Origin: Escherichia phage welsh
Sequence record: NC_073078.1
DNA: 45,207 nt
Reading direction: 5' to 3' (one strand)
In this document: piece after piece, positions 14,940-29,480 of the stretch
Position numbering within the stretch: the stretch's first letter is position 1
Layout of the letters: each line of letters begins with the position of its first letter
Translations under genes and position numbers: made by a program
The notes under the pieces: model-generated
Databases searched by the model: none
What the model saw: only the letters and a program-made list of their open reading frames with translations
Told to the model about the DNA's origin: nothing

Positions 14940-15002
14940 GATGTGGTCCTGTTTATGGGAGGCCGTATTGCCTCCCGACGCGTTAACTATAGTGCAACCA
15001 AC

Positions 15003-15473
15003 CTATTGGTTGCAAGTGAATTTTGCAACGTTTATTGCGTAAATTTTCGGGACCAAATCACCACACGCCCGACGAATTGCCGCGATGTTCTTCGGACAGT
15101 CTTCAATGATGACCAGTTCCGACACGTCCGCATAGCAGACCATTTTGAACACGGCGCACGCCTTAAACTCTGGCGGCGGGGTGTCGTCCAGCATGTGGCG
15201 CATAAACAACCTGCCGTTCGGGAATACTTCCAATTGCTCGGCGGTGGTGTCCCAACATTCGCGCTGCCGGTTTGTCAGATACGCGATCTCGAAGCCTTGC
15301 TCTTTGTACATGCGCAACAGCGGCAGCATATCCATGTTCAGGTCTTCGCGTATGTGCGCTTTGTGCCACTTTGCCCAAAATGTTGATTTCGTTTTTATAC
15401 CCGGAACCAGGTCGGCGCGTGCATCACTCGAACCATTAATAACGCCATCAAGATCACAAATCAGTAGTTTCAT
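15003..15473 (-). CDS. HAD-superfamily phosphatase (nucleotidase-like)
   Basis: N-terminal LLICDLDGVI is the HAD motif I (DxDG); 156 aa. Confidence 0.65.
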   Translation of the reverse strand: MKLLICDLDGVINGSSDARADLVPGIKTKSTFWAKWHKAHIREDLNMDMLPLLRMYKEQGFEIAYLTNRQRECWDTTAEQLEVFPNGRLFMRHMLDDTPPPEFKACAVFKMVCYADVSELVIIEDCPKNIAAIRRACGDLVPKIYAINVAKFTCNQ

Positions 15474-25208: not shown

Positions 25209-25460
25209 TTATTTTGTCTCCCAGCGGTCAATTGTTTTTGCTTCGGATGCAACTGCGAAGCGAACATATTCCAGATTGGAATCCGCCCAAATATAAAAGT
25301 CGGGGTTAGTAAAGGTGGTGCGCTTAATTTGCGCGGGGGTGTTACGGCGTTTATCTATTACGGCAACGCGTGACTGAAAGCTGCCGATGCGTTCGAATAG
25401 CCAATAATATGGGCGCTGGTCGCGGGAGTCCACCGCCTCGATTAGCGTGAAGCGTGCCAT
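25209..25460 (-). CDS. Hypothetical protein
   Basis: 83 aa; GAGGA RBS; terminator-like hairpin immediately upstream. Confidence 0.4.
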   Translation of the reverse strand: MARFTLIEAVDSRDQRPYYWLFERIGSFQSRVAVIDKRRNTPAQIKRTTFTNPDFYIWADSNLEYVRFAVASEAKTIDRWETK

Positions 25461-25471
25461 TGTCTCGTCCT

Positions 25472-25500
25472 CTAAAAATAGGCCCGCAGATTAGCGGGCC
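25472..25500 (-). terminator. Minus-strand intrinsic terminator/attenuator
   Basis: On the minus strand GGCCCGC-taatct-GCGGGCC followed by TATTTTT. Confidence 0.55.
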
Positions 25501-25508
25501 GGATAATT

Positions 25509-25634
25509 TTAATCTTCACCGCCGAGTTGTCTATAAACCTCGTCCGGGTCGTCGCCTCTTTCTTCGCAGAAGGCGGTGAATGCCGCCCAATTTTCTGCTA
25601 TGAAATCGAGCATGATTCTCATTTCATAGTCCAT
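25509..25634 (-). CDS. Hypothetical small protein (41 aa)
   Basis: ATG with GGAAG upstream; MDYEMRIMLDFIAENWAAF...; below the track size threshold. Confidence 0.3.
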   Translation of the reverse strand: MDYEMRIMLDFIAENWAAFTAFCEERGDDPDEVYRQLGGED

Positions 25635-25638
25635 GATA

Positions 25639-26148
25639 TTAATCTTCCAATTCGAAATAAGTTTCGACGATTTCTTTTAGCTCTTTGTGGAAGTCTTCGA
25701 CGTCGTCATCTTCCAGCTTAGCGATTGATTTGATCTCGAACGATTCCAGCAGGTCGTCGAATTCGTCGTTCGCATCGTCGTCATCGCCACCGGCGATAAT
25801 CGCGGCATACTGTTTGATTTCGTCGCGCATCTCTGCCAGCGGATCGGCATCTTTCTTACCTTTGCCTTTCGCCGGTGCTTTTTTAGATTTAGCCGGTTTT
25901 TCGTCTTCGTCGTCGTCATCTTCTACGACTTCTTTTTTGGCCTTACCCTTCGCCGGTGCTTTTTTAGCTTTAGCCGGTTTTTCGTCTTCGGCGTCATCGT
26001 CGTCATCTTCGACAACTTCTTTTTTGGCCTTAGACGGCTTCTTGTCTTCCTGTTTACCAACGGCAGCGCCAACGGTTTCATAATGCTTTGCAATGGTTTC
26101 CAGTGCTACTACGCCGCGAGTGATCAGGTTTACGATTTGCTCAAACAT
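25639..26148 (-). CDS. Acidic/lysine-rich repeat protein, first gene of the leftward early operon
   Basis: Start chosen at internal ATG 26148 with strong RBS GGAGATATACC. Tandem KPAKAKKAPAKGKAKKEVVEDDDD units and an acidic C-terminal third; the DNA has a tandem duplication of about 85 bp. Confidence 0.6.
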   Translation of the reverse strand: MFEQIVNLITRGVVALETIAKHYETVGAAVGKQEDKKPSKAKKEVVEDDDDDAEDEKPAKAKKAPAKGKAKKEVVEDDDDEDEKPAKSKKAPAKGKGKKDADPLAEMRDEIKQYAAIIAGGDDDDANDEFDDLLESFEIKSIAKLEDDDVEDFHKELKEIVETYFELED

Positions 26149-26344
26149 GGTATATCTCCGATTGGTTAAGTTTAGGTGTCGGCAGTTAACTTCGTCGGTG
26201 GCCTTAACATATTGCCAGGTTACGCGTTCTCCCGTTCGGGTAGTGGACCTGGTTATATAATCACGGTTGGGAATCCTGACACTTCGATCCGGCCCCTGCG
26301 TTGCCCCTCTCCAGTTTGCGTCCTGCATCCTGTCGACGGGGTGA

Positions 26345-26374
26345 ATAATAGATTGGTTGCAGGATGGGTGTCAA
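26345..26374 (-). promoter_or_regulatory. Candidate leftward early promoter
   Basis: On the minus strand TTGACA, 18 nt, TATTAT; an ATTGGTTGCA motif lies in the spacer; about 190 nt upstream of the first leftward gene. Confidence 0.3.
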
Positions 26375-26384
26375 CAACTAATTT

Positions 26385-26419
26385 CAAAAAAAAGCGCCGA
26401 GGCAAAATGCGACGGCGCT
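26385..26419 (-). terminator. Minus-strand hairpin with U8 tract inside the divergent control region
   Basis: On the minus strand AGCGCCG-13 nt loop-CGGCGCT followed by TTTTTTTT. Confidence 0.45.
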
Positions 26420-26488
26420 AACCAATAAGAGACAATGAGACGAGAATTATTATTACACGCGTGCGCGCCCGTTTCAATATCCAAAGGA

Positions 26489-26517
26489 TTTGACACCGTG
26501 CAGTTTTGGGTGTAGTT
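26489..26517 (+). promoter_or_regulatory. Candidate rightward promoter
   Basis: TTGACA, 17 nt, then TAGTTT (weak -10), about 35 nt before the HTH gene. Confidence 0.3.
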
Positions 26518-26549
26518 TCGTTGGTCATTAACCAACTGAGGGCAGAGCA

Positions 26550-26879
26550 ATGAATGTAAACGACGCAATCGAAATGTTAACGAAGACTGTTTGCAGTGAG
26601 ACAAGCCGGTCATGGGCATACACCGATGCCGTGGGGGCTGTGTTATTTGAAATCGAACGACTGCGGCTTACCGAAAAAGAATTGCGCGCCAGGCTGGAAC
26701 TACTCAACGGTACAGCAGCAAGCAAGCTGCAAAAACACAATGAAGAAATGGAAGAATACAAAAAGCAGGTTATCCGTTTGCGCGCCGAGGGCAAATCTTG
26801 GGCGATGATTGCCGAGTTGACCGGAATTAATCAGAGCACAGTGCGCTCCTGGGTACGCAATAATAAAACTTCTAAGTAA
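26550..26879 (+). CDS. HTH DNA-binding protein (possible early regulator)
   Basis: C-terminal GKSWAMIAELTGINQSTVRSWV is helix-turn-helix-like; first gene of the rightward transcript. Confidence 0.45.
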   Translation: MNVNDAIEMLTKTVCSETSRSWAYTDAVGAVLFEIERLRLTEKELRARLELLNGTAASKLQKHNEEMEEYKKQVIRLRAEGKSWAMIAELTGINQSTVRSWVRNNKTSK

Positions 26880-26889
26880 GGCCACGGCA

Positions 26890-29154
26890 ATGAGCTTGAT
26901 TAAATTCGCTGTAACAAAACCCGCTAAAAAAGGCGAAAAAGCCAGGGCGGAAAACTTCCAGATGACGACCGATGAGTTTTTCGAATTTATCAAAGATGCG
27001 AAAGAAATCTCCTCGGTGCATATCAACAAGACGGAAGATAAAGCCGAGTACGCCCGCCGTAAGCGTAAGGCTGATGGCATTGTGGCTTATACCAGTGATG
27101 GGCTGCGCCGCAAGACCAGTGCCGTGGACCGCTCGATCCTGTTCTTCGATATTGACCGCACCGACACCCGCACCCTGCGCCGCTGCCGTAAGGCGTTCAT
27201 CGACGCGGGTCTGGAACACGTATTTCACACCACCACCGGCGACCGCCACCCGCTGAAGGGCGGCACGCGTTGCGCCCGTTTCCTGGTGCTCACTGACAAG
27301 CCTGTACCGGCTGAAGACCTGGGCCGAGTACAGTATGCACTATTACACCAACTGGGTCTGTCAGATGTGGACTTCGATGATTGCACGAAAGACACAAACC
27401 GCCTTATGTACCTGCCTCACCAGCAATCGGTTGTTAAGTGTCACTACGGCAAACGTGCCCGCGTCCGTCGTCTGCTTCGCCTGGCTGATAAGCTGGGAGT
27501 GGAAAAAGAGGAAGTACGCCGCGAACTAACCCAGGGCGATGACGGCGTGGCGGATGGTATTCTGGATTGGTGCTTCCAGGCAGGATTCGAACCGCTGTCA
27601 TCCGGTCGTGGTTATGAAGTGCCGTGCCCGAACGAACACCTGCACAGTGGTGAAGGGTCCACCGCTATCATGGTTAAGGATGGCGAGATCCGTTTCAAGT
27701 GTATGCACACCGGCAACGAGTGTTGCTCGGAACTGAACAGACACCAGCACCTGGCGCTACGTCTCATCGGGATACCGGACCACCTGAACGTCGAACCGCA
27801 CAACATGTCACGTAAGCAAATCGCCGCCATCCTCCCAGGGCTGGACGACGAGGAAGTCGAATCCTTATATGAACATATTGTTGATGCGGTTGGCGACGGC
27901 GAAGAATACGGCGTGTGCACCGATGCGGATCTGGATAACGAGCCGGTTGCGCTGTTCAGTAAGCACGACCCGATTATCGAGGGGTTGGTTAACTTTAAAT
28001 CGACCTGGTATATGGCTGGCGAGTCGAATATTGGTAAATCGTTCTACGTGCTAGGGCAGATGGGTGCGGTTGCCGCGGGTATTCCGTTTGGTGGCGCGAA
28101 GGTCGTCCAGTCCCATTGCTTCTATTTCGACGCGGAAGGTGGCGAAGCCTCTAACCAGCGCAAAGAAGCATTGCAGATTAAATATGAGCACGACCTGGAC
28201 AAGCTGCACATTATCGATCTGCAATCACGCGGCTGGGATATCACCAGCAAATCCGGCTTGCGTGAAGTTATCAGCTTCATCAACCGCACCGCTAACGGCG
28301 AGCCGGTTGGCCTGGTGGCGTTCGACTCACTCAACCAGACTGTTGCGCTGCGGTCCGCAGATGCAAAACCGTTCGACGAGAATAACGCCAGCGATATGGG
28401 TGAAGTGGTCAAAGCGCTGAAGGCCATTGCGGAAAATACAGGCGGCAGTGCGGGCGTCATCCACCACCCGGCGAAGGGTGCAAACGGCAGCAGATCTCCC
28501 CGTGGGTCCGGTGCGCTGCATGGCGCTGTCGATTCTGCGTTCTTCCTGGAGCAACCGGACGACAATCAGCCGGGCCAATTGAACCTGTATCACGAAAAGG
28601 CACGTAACGGCATCAAGCAAGCGCCGCGCGGCTTCGTCCTGCTCAAGTGCAAGGTTAAGGTGGATCTCCGCAAGTCCGAAGCGTTCGAATCACACCAGTC
28701 CACCAGCACCGGGCCAGACTTCGGCGATGTGGTTGCCGGTTGGGACGTCAAGCCAATCGCATCCACGCCACGCGACGAGACTCTTTACCTCGTACCGGTC
28801 GCCCTGGCACCGTTCGCTATTGAACAGGCGAAGGCTGCGGGCAAAGCAGCAGTTAAGGAAGAGAACGCCGCAGGGCCGCGCAACGAAAAAGAGAAAGTGC
28901 TTTATGCAGCACTGGAAAAACTGATGGAAGATAACCCGGACCATACCGGATTCAGCAAATCGGCAATTGTCCGCCAGGCTGGGCTTGCGAAAGGTGGCAC
29001 ATCTACGAAGGCAATCGACGATATGGTCGAGCGCGGCGTACTCGGTTTTTATACCGATCCGCACACTGGGGCCATCTATGGGTCGTCGAATATCGTCATC
29101 AAAACGAATATACCCATCACGCTTTCGGCGACCGATGACGACCTGAAAGATTAA
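26890..29154 (+). CDS. DNA primase/helicase (primase-polymerase-like N-terminus, zinc-binding region, RecA-like ATPase)
   Basis: 754 aa; Cys/His cluster CPNEHLHSGEGS...CMHTGNECC; Walker A GESNIGKS and Walker B-like VAFDSLNQ. Confidence 0.75.
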   Translation: MSLIKFAVTKPAKKGEKARAENFQMTTDEFFEFIKDAKEISSVHINKTEDKAEYARRKRKADGIVAYTSDGLRRKTSAVDRSILFFDIDRTDTRTLRRCRKAFIDAGLEHVFHTTTGDRHPLKGGTRCARFLVLTDKPVPAEDLGRVQYALLHQLGLSDVDFDDCTKDTNRLMYLPHQQSVVKCHYGKRARVRRLLRLADKLGVEKEEVRRELTQGDDGVADGILDWCFQAGFEPLSSGRGYEVPCPNEHLHSGEGSTAIMVKDGEIRFKCMHTGNECCSELNRHQHLALRLIGIPDHLNVEPHNMSRKQIAAILPGLDDEEVESLYEHIVDAVGDGEEYGVCTDADLDNEPVALFSKHDPIIEGLVNFKSTWYMAGESNIGKSFYVLGQMGAVAAGIPFGGAKVVQSHCFYFDAEGGEASNQRKEALQIKYEHDLDKLHIIDLQSRGWDITSKSGLREVISFINRTANGEPVGLVAFDSLNQTVALRSADAKPFDENNASDMGEVVKALKAIAENTGGSAGVIHHPAKGANGSRSPRGSGALHGAVDSAFFLEQPDDNQPGQLNLYHEKARNGIKQAPRGFVLLKCKVKVDLRKSEAFESHQSTSTGPDFGDVVAGWDVKPIASTPRDETLYLVPVALAPFAIEQAKAAGKAAVKEENAAGPRNEKEKVLYAALEKLMEDNPDHTGFSKSAIVRQAGLAKGGTSTKAIDDMVERGVLGFYTDPHTGAIYGSSNIVIKTNIPITLSATDDDLKD

Positions 29155-29229
29155 ATTTTGCGCGCATTGGTTGCCGATATGGGAATTCCCATATCGCTAA
29201 AAGATTAAATTTTGCGCGCGTTGGTTGCC
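29146..29229. repeat. 30-bp direct repeats flanking a perfect 20-bp palindrome
   Basis: AAAGATTAAATTTTGCGCGC(A/G)TTGGTTGCC at about 29146-29175 and 29200-29229 (1 mismatch); GATATGGGAATTCCCATATC at about 29176-29195; the left repeat overlaps the primase stop codon. Confidence 0.8.
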
Positions 29230-29269
29230 ATTTTGGGTGTTTCTATCTGGTCGTATTGGTTGCCGTGTA

Positions 29270-29480
29270 GTGTAAATATAATGAATAGTTATGCAGTTTT
29301 ATTGCATAAAGTAAGCGGGACAAAAAGCGGGACAAACAAGGGGCGGGACAAAGCGGGACAGCACCCCCGTCCCGCCCCGGATGGCGCGGCTTCCAGAGGA
29401 GCGGGACAGCGGGACAGCACCCCAGTCTTTCAGACTAGACGGGGGTCAACGGCCCCCCTCGTCTGAGACTGAATAAAATC
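29270..29480. repeat. GCGGGACA box array, copy B, with the conserved 3' hairpin module
   Basis: Seven or more GCGGGAC boxes. About 29393-29477 is near-identical to copy A (about 1016-1090); the 39-bp stretch between box clusters differs in sequence but is the same length as in copy A. Confidence 0.8.

Follow-up and report, generated by a model that had tools for sequence, protein, structure and literature searches.

A structured leader RNA and a candidate small RNA in the early control region of Escherichia phage welsh and related dhillonviruses

Lambda oop is a short leftward RNA which has its own sigma-70 promoter and intrinsic terminator, lies beside the replication genes and is cis-antisense to the 3' end of cII. 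The c4 RNA of phages P1 and P7 and the CI RNA of P4 are small RNAs that are processed out of longer leader transcripts and take part in the immunity circuits of temperate phages. They lie upstream of the target operon on the same strand and are complementary to sequence at or near the downstream ribosome-binding site. In the 6S unit of lambda, PR'-tR', a promoter closely precedes a strong terminator, and a short constitutive RNA is made upstream of an operon. Riboswitches and protein-binding leaders have a closing helix, multi-way junctions and invariant unpaired bases in a 5' untranslated region (UTR), with covariation in the helices. [quoted passage not shown] The putL and putR elements are antiterminator RNAs of ~70 nucleotides (nt) with two stem-loops (PMC9378689). 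They are found immediately downstream of early promoters, are independent of the genes that follow and are conserved in sequence because their partner is the host RNA polymerase (PMC9378689). The present analysis concerns a gap of 400 base pairs (bp), positions 26149 to 26549, in the 45,207-nt sequence of Escherichia phage welsh (NC_073078.1; this whole stretch is called the window below). The gap shares features with each of these systems and holds a structured leader RNA and a candidate small RNA.

A preliminary description of the gap had proposed a divergent early control region with promoters in both directions, and all the features that it listed are found at the positions it gave. It missed the leader: about 165 of the 400 bp correspond to a conserved structured RNA. 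This leader and the conserved small-RNA candidate are the most valuable content of the interval. The gap would form a compact control region with three promoters (P_L, P_s and P_R) and two RNA elements. The whole explanation, comprising the three promoters, a pairing RNA of ~55 nt and a leader RNA that acts on a host component, has about an even chance of being correct. It is also proposed, more tentatively and with less than an even chance, that the leader is an undescribed class of phage RNA device, horizontally exchanged and set at +1 of early operons, which acts without a dedicated phage protein on a machine conserved in enterobacteria and forms an RNA-based early circuit together with the ~55-nt RNA.

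In blastn, more than 170 phage records align to the gap region with 90-99% identity, nearly all of them dhillonviruses. By this similarity the window is a Dhillonvirus, that is, an HK578-, EP23- and SO-1-like virulent siphovirus of E. coli. Virulent siphoviruses of enterobacteria, among them Dhillonvirus and the T1-like phages, see wide use in phage therapy and in screens of defence systems, and no published mapping of early gene control was found for them. The relatives have the same gap between a leftward gene for an acidic protein and a rightward gene for a small helix-turn-helix (HTH) protein, after which a helicase-primase gene follows. Gene starts at 26148 (minus strand) and 26550 (plus strand) agree with the public annotation of relatives. 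In the HK578 record, three promoters are annotated at positions equivalent to P_R, P_s and P_L. A promoter scan gave four promoters in the region against 1.9 expected, which is not significant alone; it is conservation, not the promoter count, that sets the region apart from chance. The leftward promoter and the elements of the leader are as follows.

26345 to 26374, minus strand: P_L, the predicted main leftward early promoter, TTGACA-18-TATTAT, with TGCAACCAAT at 26361-26352 in its spacer
26337 to 26174, minus strand: structured leader RNA of 164 nt, matched by covariance model R1 with 161.9 bits, one copy in the window
26337-26330 with 26185-26178, minus strand: helix P1 of the leader
~26332-26312, minus strand: hairpin P2 with an AGGAC loop
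26305-26303 with 26202-26200, minus strand: long-range helix of 3 bp
26296-26287 with 26280-26269, minus strand: helix P3
P4, minus strand: helix uncertain in the Dhillonvirus subtype
26251-26247 with 26220-26216, minus strand: helix P5
26240-26238 with 26233-26231, minus strand: helix P6

P_L lies where a leftward promoter had been expected, has 11 of 12 matches in the scan and is conserved across the Dhillonvirus loci. The leader begins 7-8 nt past its -10 hexamer; for this reason the predicted start of P_L coincides with the first base of the leader, and P_L transcripts appear from the sequence to start there.

The structure of the leader is carried by covariation. Model R1, built from 24 sequences, matches at 151-184 bits and exactly once per genome. 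In a model-based alignment of 31 distinct sequences, 87.6% of cells pair, and half of the pairs (15 of 30) change on both sides. The covariation score of this alignment is 0.371, compared with 0.134 for shuffles, none of 500 of which reach the observed value, and with at most 0.111 for registers slid by 1-3 columns. Four leader helices pair in 96.5-100% of cells. For P5, ten different 5' strands are found, nine of them with a perfect cognate partner; that of KMI8 pairs at four of five positions. Single-pair swaps in P5 are seen even among near-identical dhillonviruses, where CAGGU/ACCUG is replaced by CUGGU/ACCAG or CCGGU/ACCGG. In the long-range 3-bp helix, G-C gives way to A-U on both strands together in all sequences. 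For P1, which pairs the 5' end with the 3' end, the support is limited to compensatory differences seen by eye, as in the strand pairs GACGGGC/GCCCGUC, GACGGGUG/CACCUGUC and AGACGG/CCGUCU. Between the helices stand the invariant unpaired blocks GGAGAGG, AACGCA, AACCGUGA, CACU, AGAACGC and CGACGAAG.

Four observations weigh against this account. P2 and P4 pair in only ~66% of cells under a common register. Cognate P1 strands give -13.6 kcal/mol and non-cognate ones -12.1 kcal/mol, a comparison that does not discriminate, as the strands of different subtypes resemble each other. The leader copy of the window folds no better than shuffles (z = +1.2), so the case for the leader rests on covariation. 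Finally, full-text literature searches, judged by title and abstract, returned no transcript mapping of this region for a Dhillonvirus. On balance the leader is a structured RNA with six helices that matches no catalogued RNA family: Rfam gave no match to it at E values up to 10. No publication describing either of the two RNAs was found by title and abstract.

In every subtype, 2-5 nt are contested between the 5' strand of P1 and that of P2; the CAG of the window has two possible partners, each a CUG. An 8-bp pairing of GGGCGGCG with CGCCGCCC, possible in Lumpael, IME279 and PT1, requires P2 to open. The competition may constitute a conformational switch.

Outside the dhillonviruses, the segment ~26190-26326 matches phages of other genera by blastn at 77-94% identity, in DNA that is unannotated in the listed records. 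Besides Dhillonvirus, at least six further taxonomic groups have the leader, and the matching phages comprise T1-like Drexlerviridae (Warwickvirus, Hanrivervirus, Changchunvirus), Murrayvirus, Jilinvirus and Sortsnevirus, as well as unclassified phages of Klebsiella, Serratia and Enterobacter. In these other groups of enterobacterial siphoviruses it occupies the 5' end of same-strand gene clusters of the early or replication region. It lies there in a gap of ~200-270 nt (~700 nt in Alux-21) with both flanking genes on the strand of the leader, and the start codon follows 25-45 nt past it. A -10-like hexamer is present ~10-12 nt upstream in all 26 genuine sequences compared. The first genes downstream are mutually unrelated between phages. 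A blastn search of 5,426 complete E. coli genomes gave no match, and so no host or prophage copy. A metagenome scan with a strict two-block pattern gave 0 matches, a scan of one genome per bacterial species gave a single GC-rich chance match in an alphaproteobacterial assembly, and a second pattern run on IMG/VR added only one chance match. In swan01, Motto and KMI8, which are T1-like, and in Lumpael a conserved block (A/G)AGCAC-N4-TTG(C/T)TA stands upstream of the leader. The 21-22 nt that separate it from the -10-like hexamer exceed the spacing of a canonical sigma-70 -35 element, and no promoter was called there.

Within the dhillonviruses the leader is optional. Aligned to window positions 26182-26317, the phages Envy, Ioannina and CHD5UKE2 are precisely without it and keep both leftward promoters and the hairpin between them. 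Partial matches suggest that JLBYU37, YD-2008.s, Haito and SP1 are likewise leaderless. The ribosome-binding site is unchanged in Envy and CHD5UKE2 and altered in Ioannina; in at least Envy and CHD5UKE2 a short 5' hairpin, e.g. GGGCAUACCGCCC, replaces the leader. The leader thus behaves as a discrete, exchangeable cassette. It is also dispensable, as the leaderless phages retain promoter, ribosome-binding site and operon, and this counts against the explanation given above. The natural presence and absence of the leader among near-identical phages (window type and Envy type) offers a simple functional test with deletion controls.

The leader does not resemble a sensor dedicated to a single gene. 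The best guess is that it would act as RNA on a conserved host component, which could be the 30S subunit, RNA polymerase, Rho or a protein that binds RNA, e.g. CsrA, and this action would condition the expression or stability of whichever early operon follows. The proposal is drawn from three properties taken together: gene-independent placement at position +1 of early or replication operons, high conservation and dispensability. The sequence conservation is very high across phages whose hosts share the core machinery. Among the roles considered, action on a host component is ranked first, followed by a decoy, and then by a put-like antiterminator and a riboswitch at about the same level. Should its target be a defence factor, RNA polymerase or the ribosome, the leader would constitute a compact and portable expression or anti-defence module. 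In the more tentative reading given earlier, its action could secure the transcription or translation of whichever operon follows, or neutralise a host factor or defence.

A trans-acting decoy, either cut off from the transcript or acting in place, would serve as a sponge for CsrA or another RNA-binding protein or would distract a defence system. The optional, horizontally shared cassette resembles an accessory gene and stands at the very 5' end of early transcripts, as would suit a decoy. P2 invariably presents AGGA in the loop of its short hairpin, as CAGGAUG or CAGGACG; this is a motif of the CsrB type. Two or three further GGA motifs lie single-stranded or partly paired in the GGAGAGGAG junction. 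However, only one GGA is in a hairpin loop, CsrA binding explains little of the conserved fold, Rfam shows no Csr/Rsm match and no processing site is evident. The decoy is therefore rated improbable, though still ahead of the two remaining proposals.

The first of these is a processive antiterminator acting on RNA polymerase in the manner of HK022 put. The leader is likewise promoter-proximal in early operons, independent of the downstream gene and highly conserved in sequence. It is confined to phages whose enterobacterial hosts have a polymerase in common, and the operon of the window contains a strong internal terminator, at 25500-25481. It differs from put in its size and shape, with 164 nt, six helices and a closing P1 against ~70 nt and two stem-loops (PMC9378689). 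Comparison of genomes gives the terminator-linked role weak support: leaderless Envy keeps the same internal terminator, and in swan01, Arya and Lumpael no co-oriented intrinsic terminator lies within 1.4-2.4 kb downstream, a count of intrinsic terminators in which Rho-dependent sites are not assessable. An antiterminator of this kind is thus unlikely.

To the same degree unlikely is a riboswitch-like sensor of a metabolite, an ion or a signalling nucleotide. The closing helix P1, the multi-helix junctions with invariant unpaired nucleotides and the location in a 5' UTR recall such sensors, the aptamer-like fold is conserved with covariation, and the competition of P1 and P2 for 2-5 nt could be the switch. 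Unlike riboswitches, however, the leader precedes no coherent gene family, as its downstream genes are unrelated. It is followed by neither a terminator nor a clear platform that sequesters the Shine-Dalgarno sequence, belongs to no Rfam family, and is an optional phage-only cassette, with no host or prophage copies found and with close relatives that dispense with it. A simple 5' stabiliser would fit the short hairpin that stands in the leaderless relatives; it leaves the conserved junctions of the 164 nt unexplained. Action on a host component remains the preferred reading of the leader.

The second RNA element lies upstream of P_L, on the same strand.

26449 to 26477, minus strand: P_s, predicted promoter of the short RNA, TTGAAA at 26477-26472, 17-nt spacer, AATAAT at 26454-26449, extended -10 TG at 26457-26456
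26386 to 26442, minus strand: predicted short RNA of ~55 nt, 5' part GUCUCAUUGUCUCUUAUUGGUUA followed by the hairpin and U-tract
26386 to 26419, minus strand: predicted intrinsic terminator, hairpin 26419-26393 and U8 at 26393-26386
26146 to 26172, minus strand: first leftward gene, ribosome-binding region CUUAACCAAUCGGAGAUAUACCAUG, with complementarity to the short RNA

On the minus strand the hairpin reads A-GCGCCG-UC-GCA-UUU-UGC-CU-CGGCGC-U (26419-26393), with six G-C pairs closed by one A-U pair and an inner stem of 3 bp, and it runs into U8. It folds at -16.7 kcal/mol (z = -2.67; 2 of 200 shuffles equal it). A simple terminator scan did not list it, and the CS16 record annotates a terminator at the hairpin on the opposite strand. 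Conservation was followed in 19 Dhillonvirus loci, which represent 14 unique sequences, and in further IMG/VR contigs. The P_s hexamers and spacer, the 23-nt 5' part GUCUCAUUGUCUCUUAUUGGUUA, the hairpin and the U-tract are nearly invariant across the 19 loci, and the 6 nt between the P_s -10 hexamer and the 23-nt block vary freely. The U-tract has 8-12 residues in relatives; one locus aligns with ~6. In the Ioannina/L056 lineage, the outer stem UCCCCG...CGGGGA replaces GCGCCG...CGGCGC, which amounts to two compensatory pair changes (G-C to U-A and G-C to C-G), and the inner stem shows a change from A-U to G-U. The compensatory double changes indicate that the stem is selected as a structure. 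A GC-rich hairpin directly before at least six U residues, with a structure maintained in evolution, has the properties of a true intrinsic terminator, and the element upstream of P_L is predicted to be a good one in vivo.

A promoter had been suggested here as TTGAAA-n16-TAATAA. The element is present, one base out of that register, as TTGAAA-17-AATAAT at 26477..26449. It scores 10 of 12 matches plus the TG of an extended -10. It had been called the weaker of the leftward promoters, which is doubtful in view of the extended -10 and of a conservation as good as that of P_L. The position of the -10 hexamer predicts a start at ~26442. A terminated leftward RNA of ~55 nt (~26442-26386) is plausible and offers the simplest reading of the conservation; to this extent the short leftward RNA foreseen earlier is upheld, and only the antisense mechanism attached to it falls away. 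P_s would fire leftward and give the ~55-nt RNA, which would end at the GC hairpin and U8. The hairpin would keep P_s transcription out of the next unit and so shield P_L. Its T-run and the AT-rich GAAATTAG after it lie at about -55 to -40 of P_L, a position which, by the known consensus, would be that of an UP element. In Rfam 15 the short RNA gave only weak sub-threshold matches of 11-19 bits, driven by the terminator.

The antisense mechanism depends on where rightward transcription begins. The features on that side, and the first gene on the left, are listed below.

26490 to 26518, plus strand: P_R, rightward early promoter read from the sequence, TTGACA at 26490-26495, 17-nt spacer, TAGTTT at 26513-26518
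26520 to 26536, plus strand: palindrome GTTGGT-CATTA-ACCAAC at the predicted start of the P_R transcript
26550 to 26879, plus strand: first rightward gene, 109-amino-acid (aa) HTH protein (Pfam, PHROG 9366)
25639 to 26148, minus strand: first leftward gene, acidic protein of 169 aa (open reading frame (ORF) list, PHROG 3127, public annotation)

P_R would transcribe rightward through the HTH gene and the helicase-primase gene. It falls under the scan threshold because its weak -10 has only three of six matches; its -35 is invariant and its -10 region is kept in seven dhillonviruses. The -35 elements of P_R and P_s stand back-to-back, ~12 bp apart. A short RNA that is transcribed leftward beside replication genes, from its own promoter to its own terminator, has the general geometry of lambda oop, and such an RNA had been expected to be antisense to the rightward leader. 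P_R lies to the right of P_s, however, with its -35 at 26490-26495 and a predicted start at ~26525, so the two transcripts share no base pairs; in 25500-27200 the scan gave no other plus-strand promoter above threshold. A cis-antisense RNA overlapping the rightward leader is accordingly very improbable. Whereas oop covers the 3' end of cII, the short RNA here overlaps no transcript of the opposite strand, and any pairing would be a trans interaction with ribosome-binding sites at distances of 250 nt and 100 nt.

Complementarity to those two sites is found. On the left, 26155-26168 and 26419-26432 form an inverted repeat of 14 nt with 86% complementarity, and in a hand alignment 16 of 17 positions can pair, with GGAGA covered. 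On the right, the 3' arm of the palindrome together with the Shine-Dalgarno sequence is complementary to the short RNA, with a duplex of -17 to -19.9 kcal/mol. The calculated duplexes of the window have -17.2 to -18.0 kcal/mol at the left ribosome-binding site and -19.1 to -19.9 kcal/mol at the right one, and in most other lineages both first-gene duplexes have -17 to -20 kcal/mol. In CHD5UKE2, which has a different rightward gene, pairing is kept at -17.9 kcal/mol. Shuffled seeds do as well in 0.4% of cases at the left site and in 0.8% at the other. The short RNA would base-pair in trans in the manner of P1 c4 and P4 CI, covering UUAACCAA-N-GGAGA at both first-gene ribosome-binding sites and damping early expression. 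Unlike those RNAs, it would come from its own promoter and terminator without processing; it belongs to a virulent phage, and its second target is on the divergent operon. It is therefore described as a candidate conserved small RNA with a predicted seed and two predicted targets.

The pairing proposal also meets several contrary results. The duplex is weaker at the right site of HK578 (-12.4 kcal/mol), and in Ioannina the short RNA and the left target are both changed with no clear compensation (-13.2 kcal/mol). Ranked by duplex energy over the genome, the two sites reach no higher than the top 2.1% and the top 0.6% of 45-nt windows; in the target scan many G-U-rich sites do equally well and the ribosome-binding sites are not at the top. 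Moreover, the bases involved belong to a motif of the whole genome. TGCAACCAA(T) has 12 exact copies; with one mismatch allowed there are 27, where 11.4 are expected. For AACCAAT the count is 20 and the expectation 5.4. As the motif is genome-wide, the conservation and inverted arrangement of the AACCAAT bases could reflect protein operators, and the pairing with the ribosome-binding sites may be incidental. The two readings, RNA pairing and DNA operator, are not mutually exclusive. A perfect 9-nt match of CAUUGUCUC with GAGACAAUG also covers the start of an 83-aa gene at 25460.

Copies of the motif in the window lie on either strand at these positions.

11289
14993/15006
16902/16919
19864/19876
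23321/23337
26353
29167-29264
29628/29659
30212
32773/32796
40393/40406

They are intergenic and usually paired 12-30 bp apart. Several are within promoter spacers, including that of P_L, and others within iteron-like repeats. The motif ATTGGTTGCA, which had been noted in the region, is indeed present at 26352-26361, inside the P_L spacer, and is the same site as TGCAACCAAT on the minus strand; its membership in the genome-wide family had been overlooked. The motif is probably the operator of a phage regulator, possibly of the HTH protein encoded at 26550. This 109-aa product matches Pfam HTH_23 (2.3e-7), HTH_28 and Sigma70_r4_2, and possibly it is the binder of the TGCAACCAAT motif. The palindrome at 26520..26536, which is kept in dhillonviruses that share the same rightward gene, could be an operator, a 5' hairpin or both. 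One motif pair forms a perfect palindrome at 14993-15014. The iteron-like repeats occupy 29143-29430, just downstream of the helicase-primase gene, and comprise two 50-nt repeats 54 bp apart, each with TTGGTTGCC, and about six AGCGGGACA repeats. This segment is a candidate replication origin.

The genome-wide motif speaks for another view, in which the short transcript has no function of its own. P_s and the terminator would then be a divergent partner promoter and an insulator, and the 23 nt would be kept as a protein operator, CTAACCAAT. The hairpin would stop stray leftward transcription and supply an UP-like T-tract for P_L. TGCAACCAA/AACCAAT is present genome-wide on both strands, in promoter spacers and iterons, and an HTH gene is adjacent. 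In Arya and Alux-21, too, a terminator lies directly upstream of the leader promoter, where it ends the primase gene. Against this, all 23 nt are invariant and not just the 9-nt motif, whereas the preceding 6 nt vary freely; P_s, with its extended -10, equals P_L in the tightness of its conservation; and on both sides the complementarity continues beyond the motif and reaches the Shine-Dalgarno sequence. An insulator without a functional RNA is thus a possible but not a probable explanation.

A regulated attenuator is considerably less probable still. Here P_s and the terminator would work as lambda PR'-tR' does, with a phage factor allowing later read-through into the leftward operon. The tandem promoter, short leader and strong terminator upstream of an operon have this layout, and in a read-through RNA UCCUGCAACC (26364-26355) could pair with GGAUGCAGGA of the leader as an inverted repeat. 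No Q- or N-like protein was identified among five neighbouring early products with Pfam and PHROGs, however, and a near-consensus P_L immediately downstream makes read-through unnecessary. The arrangement differs from PR'-tR' in this second full promoter after the terminator, in the lack of an identified Q-like factor and in downstream genes that are early, not late. A pairing RNA from P_s is preferred to both the insulator and the attenuator.

Several ORFs and further signals adjoin these elements. The 169-aa product of the first leftward gene is very acidic, with lysine-rich repeats that alternate with D/E-rich ones, and its composition recalls DNA-mimic proteins. The longest ORF at this place (25639-26328, minus strand, 229 aa) enters the leader RNA and is annotated so in some records (SO-1 gp46, a coding sequence of Ioannina). 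Both this ORF and an 81-aa plus-strand ORF across the leader were rejected, since indels between genera break the frame and the segment is deleted in some dhillonviruses. From this comparison, the conserved start of the first leftward gene is taken to be the ATG at 26148 and the apparent N-terminal extension to be non-coding RNA. A 36-aa ORF at 26418-26528 was rejected as a gene as well; it has no Shine-Dalgarno sequence and carries indels in relatives.

Within the leftward operon, after the second gene, the strong minus-strand terminator at 25500-25481 consists of GGCCCGCUAAUCUGCGGGCC and then UAUUUUU, and it is conserved in leaderless Envy. It is immediately preceded by a promoter-like site (25533..25506, 10 of 12 matches), an order that resembles the promoter-terminator layout of the short RNA.

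Three of the records compared are named for non-enterobacterial hosts. Acinetobacter phage NJ01 (OQ221563) is 94-98% identical to E. coli dhillonviruses over the compared regions, Campylobacter phage A144 (MG065648) has a leader of the Dhillonvirus type, and Pseudomonas phage Motto (ON843697), classified in Drexlerviridae, shares the leader element at 87% identity. Their host assignments may be wrong, or the samples may have been contaminated.

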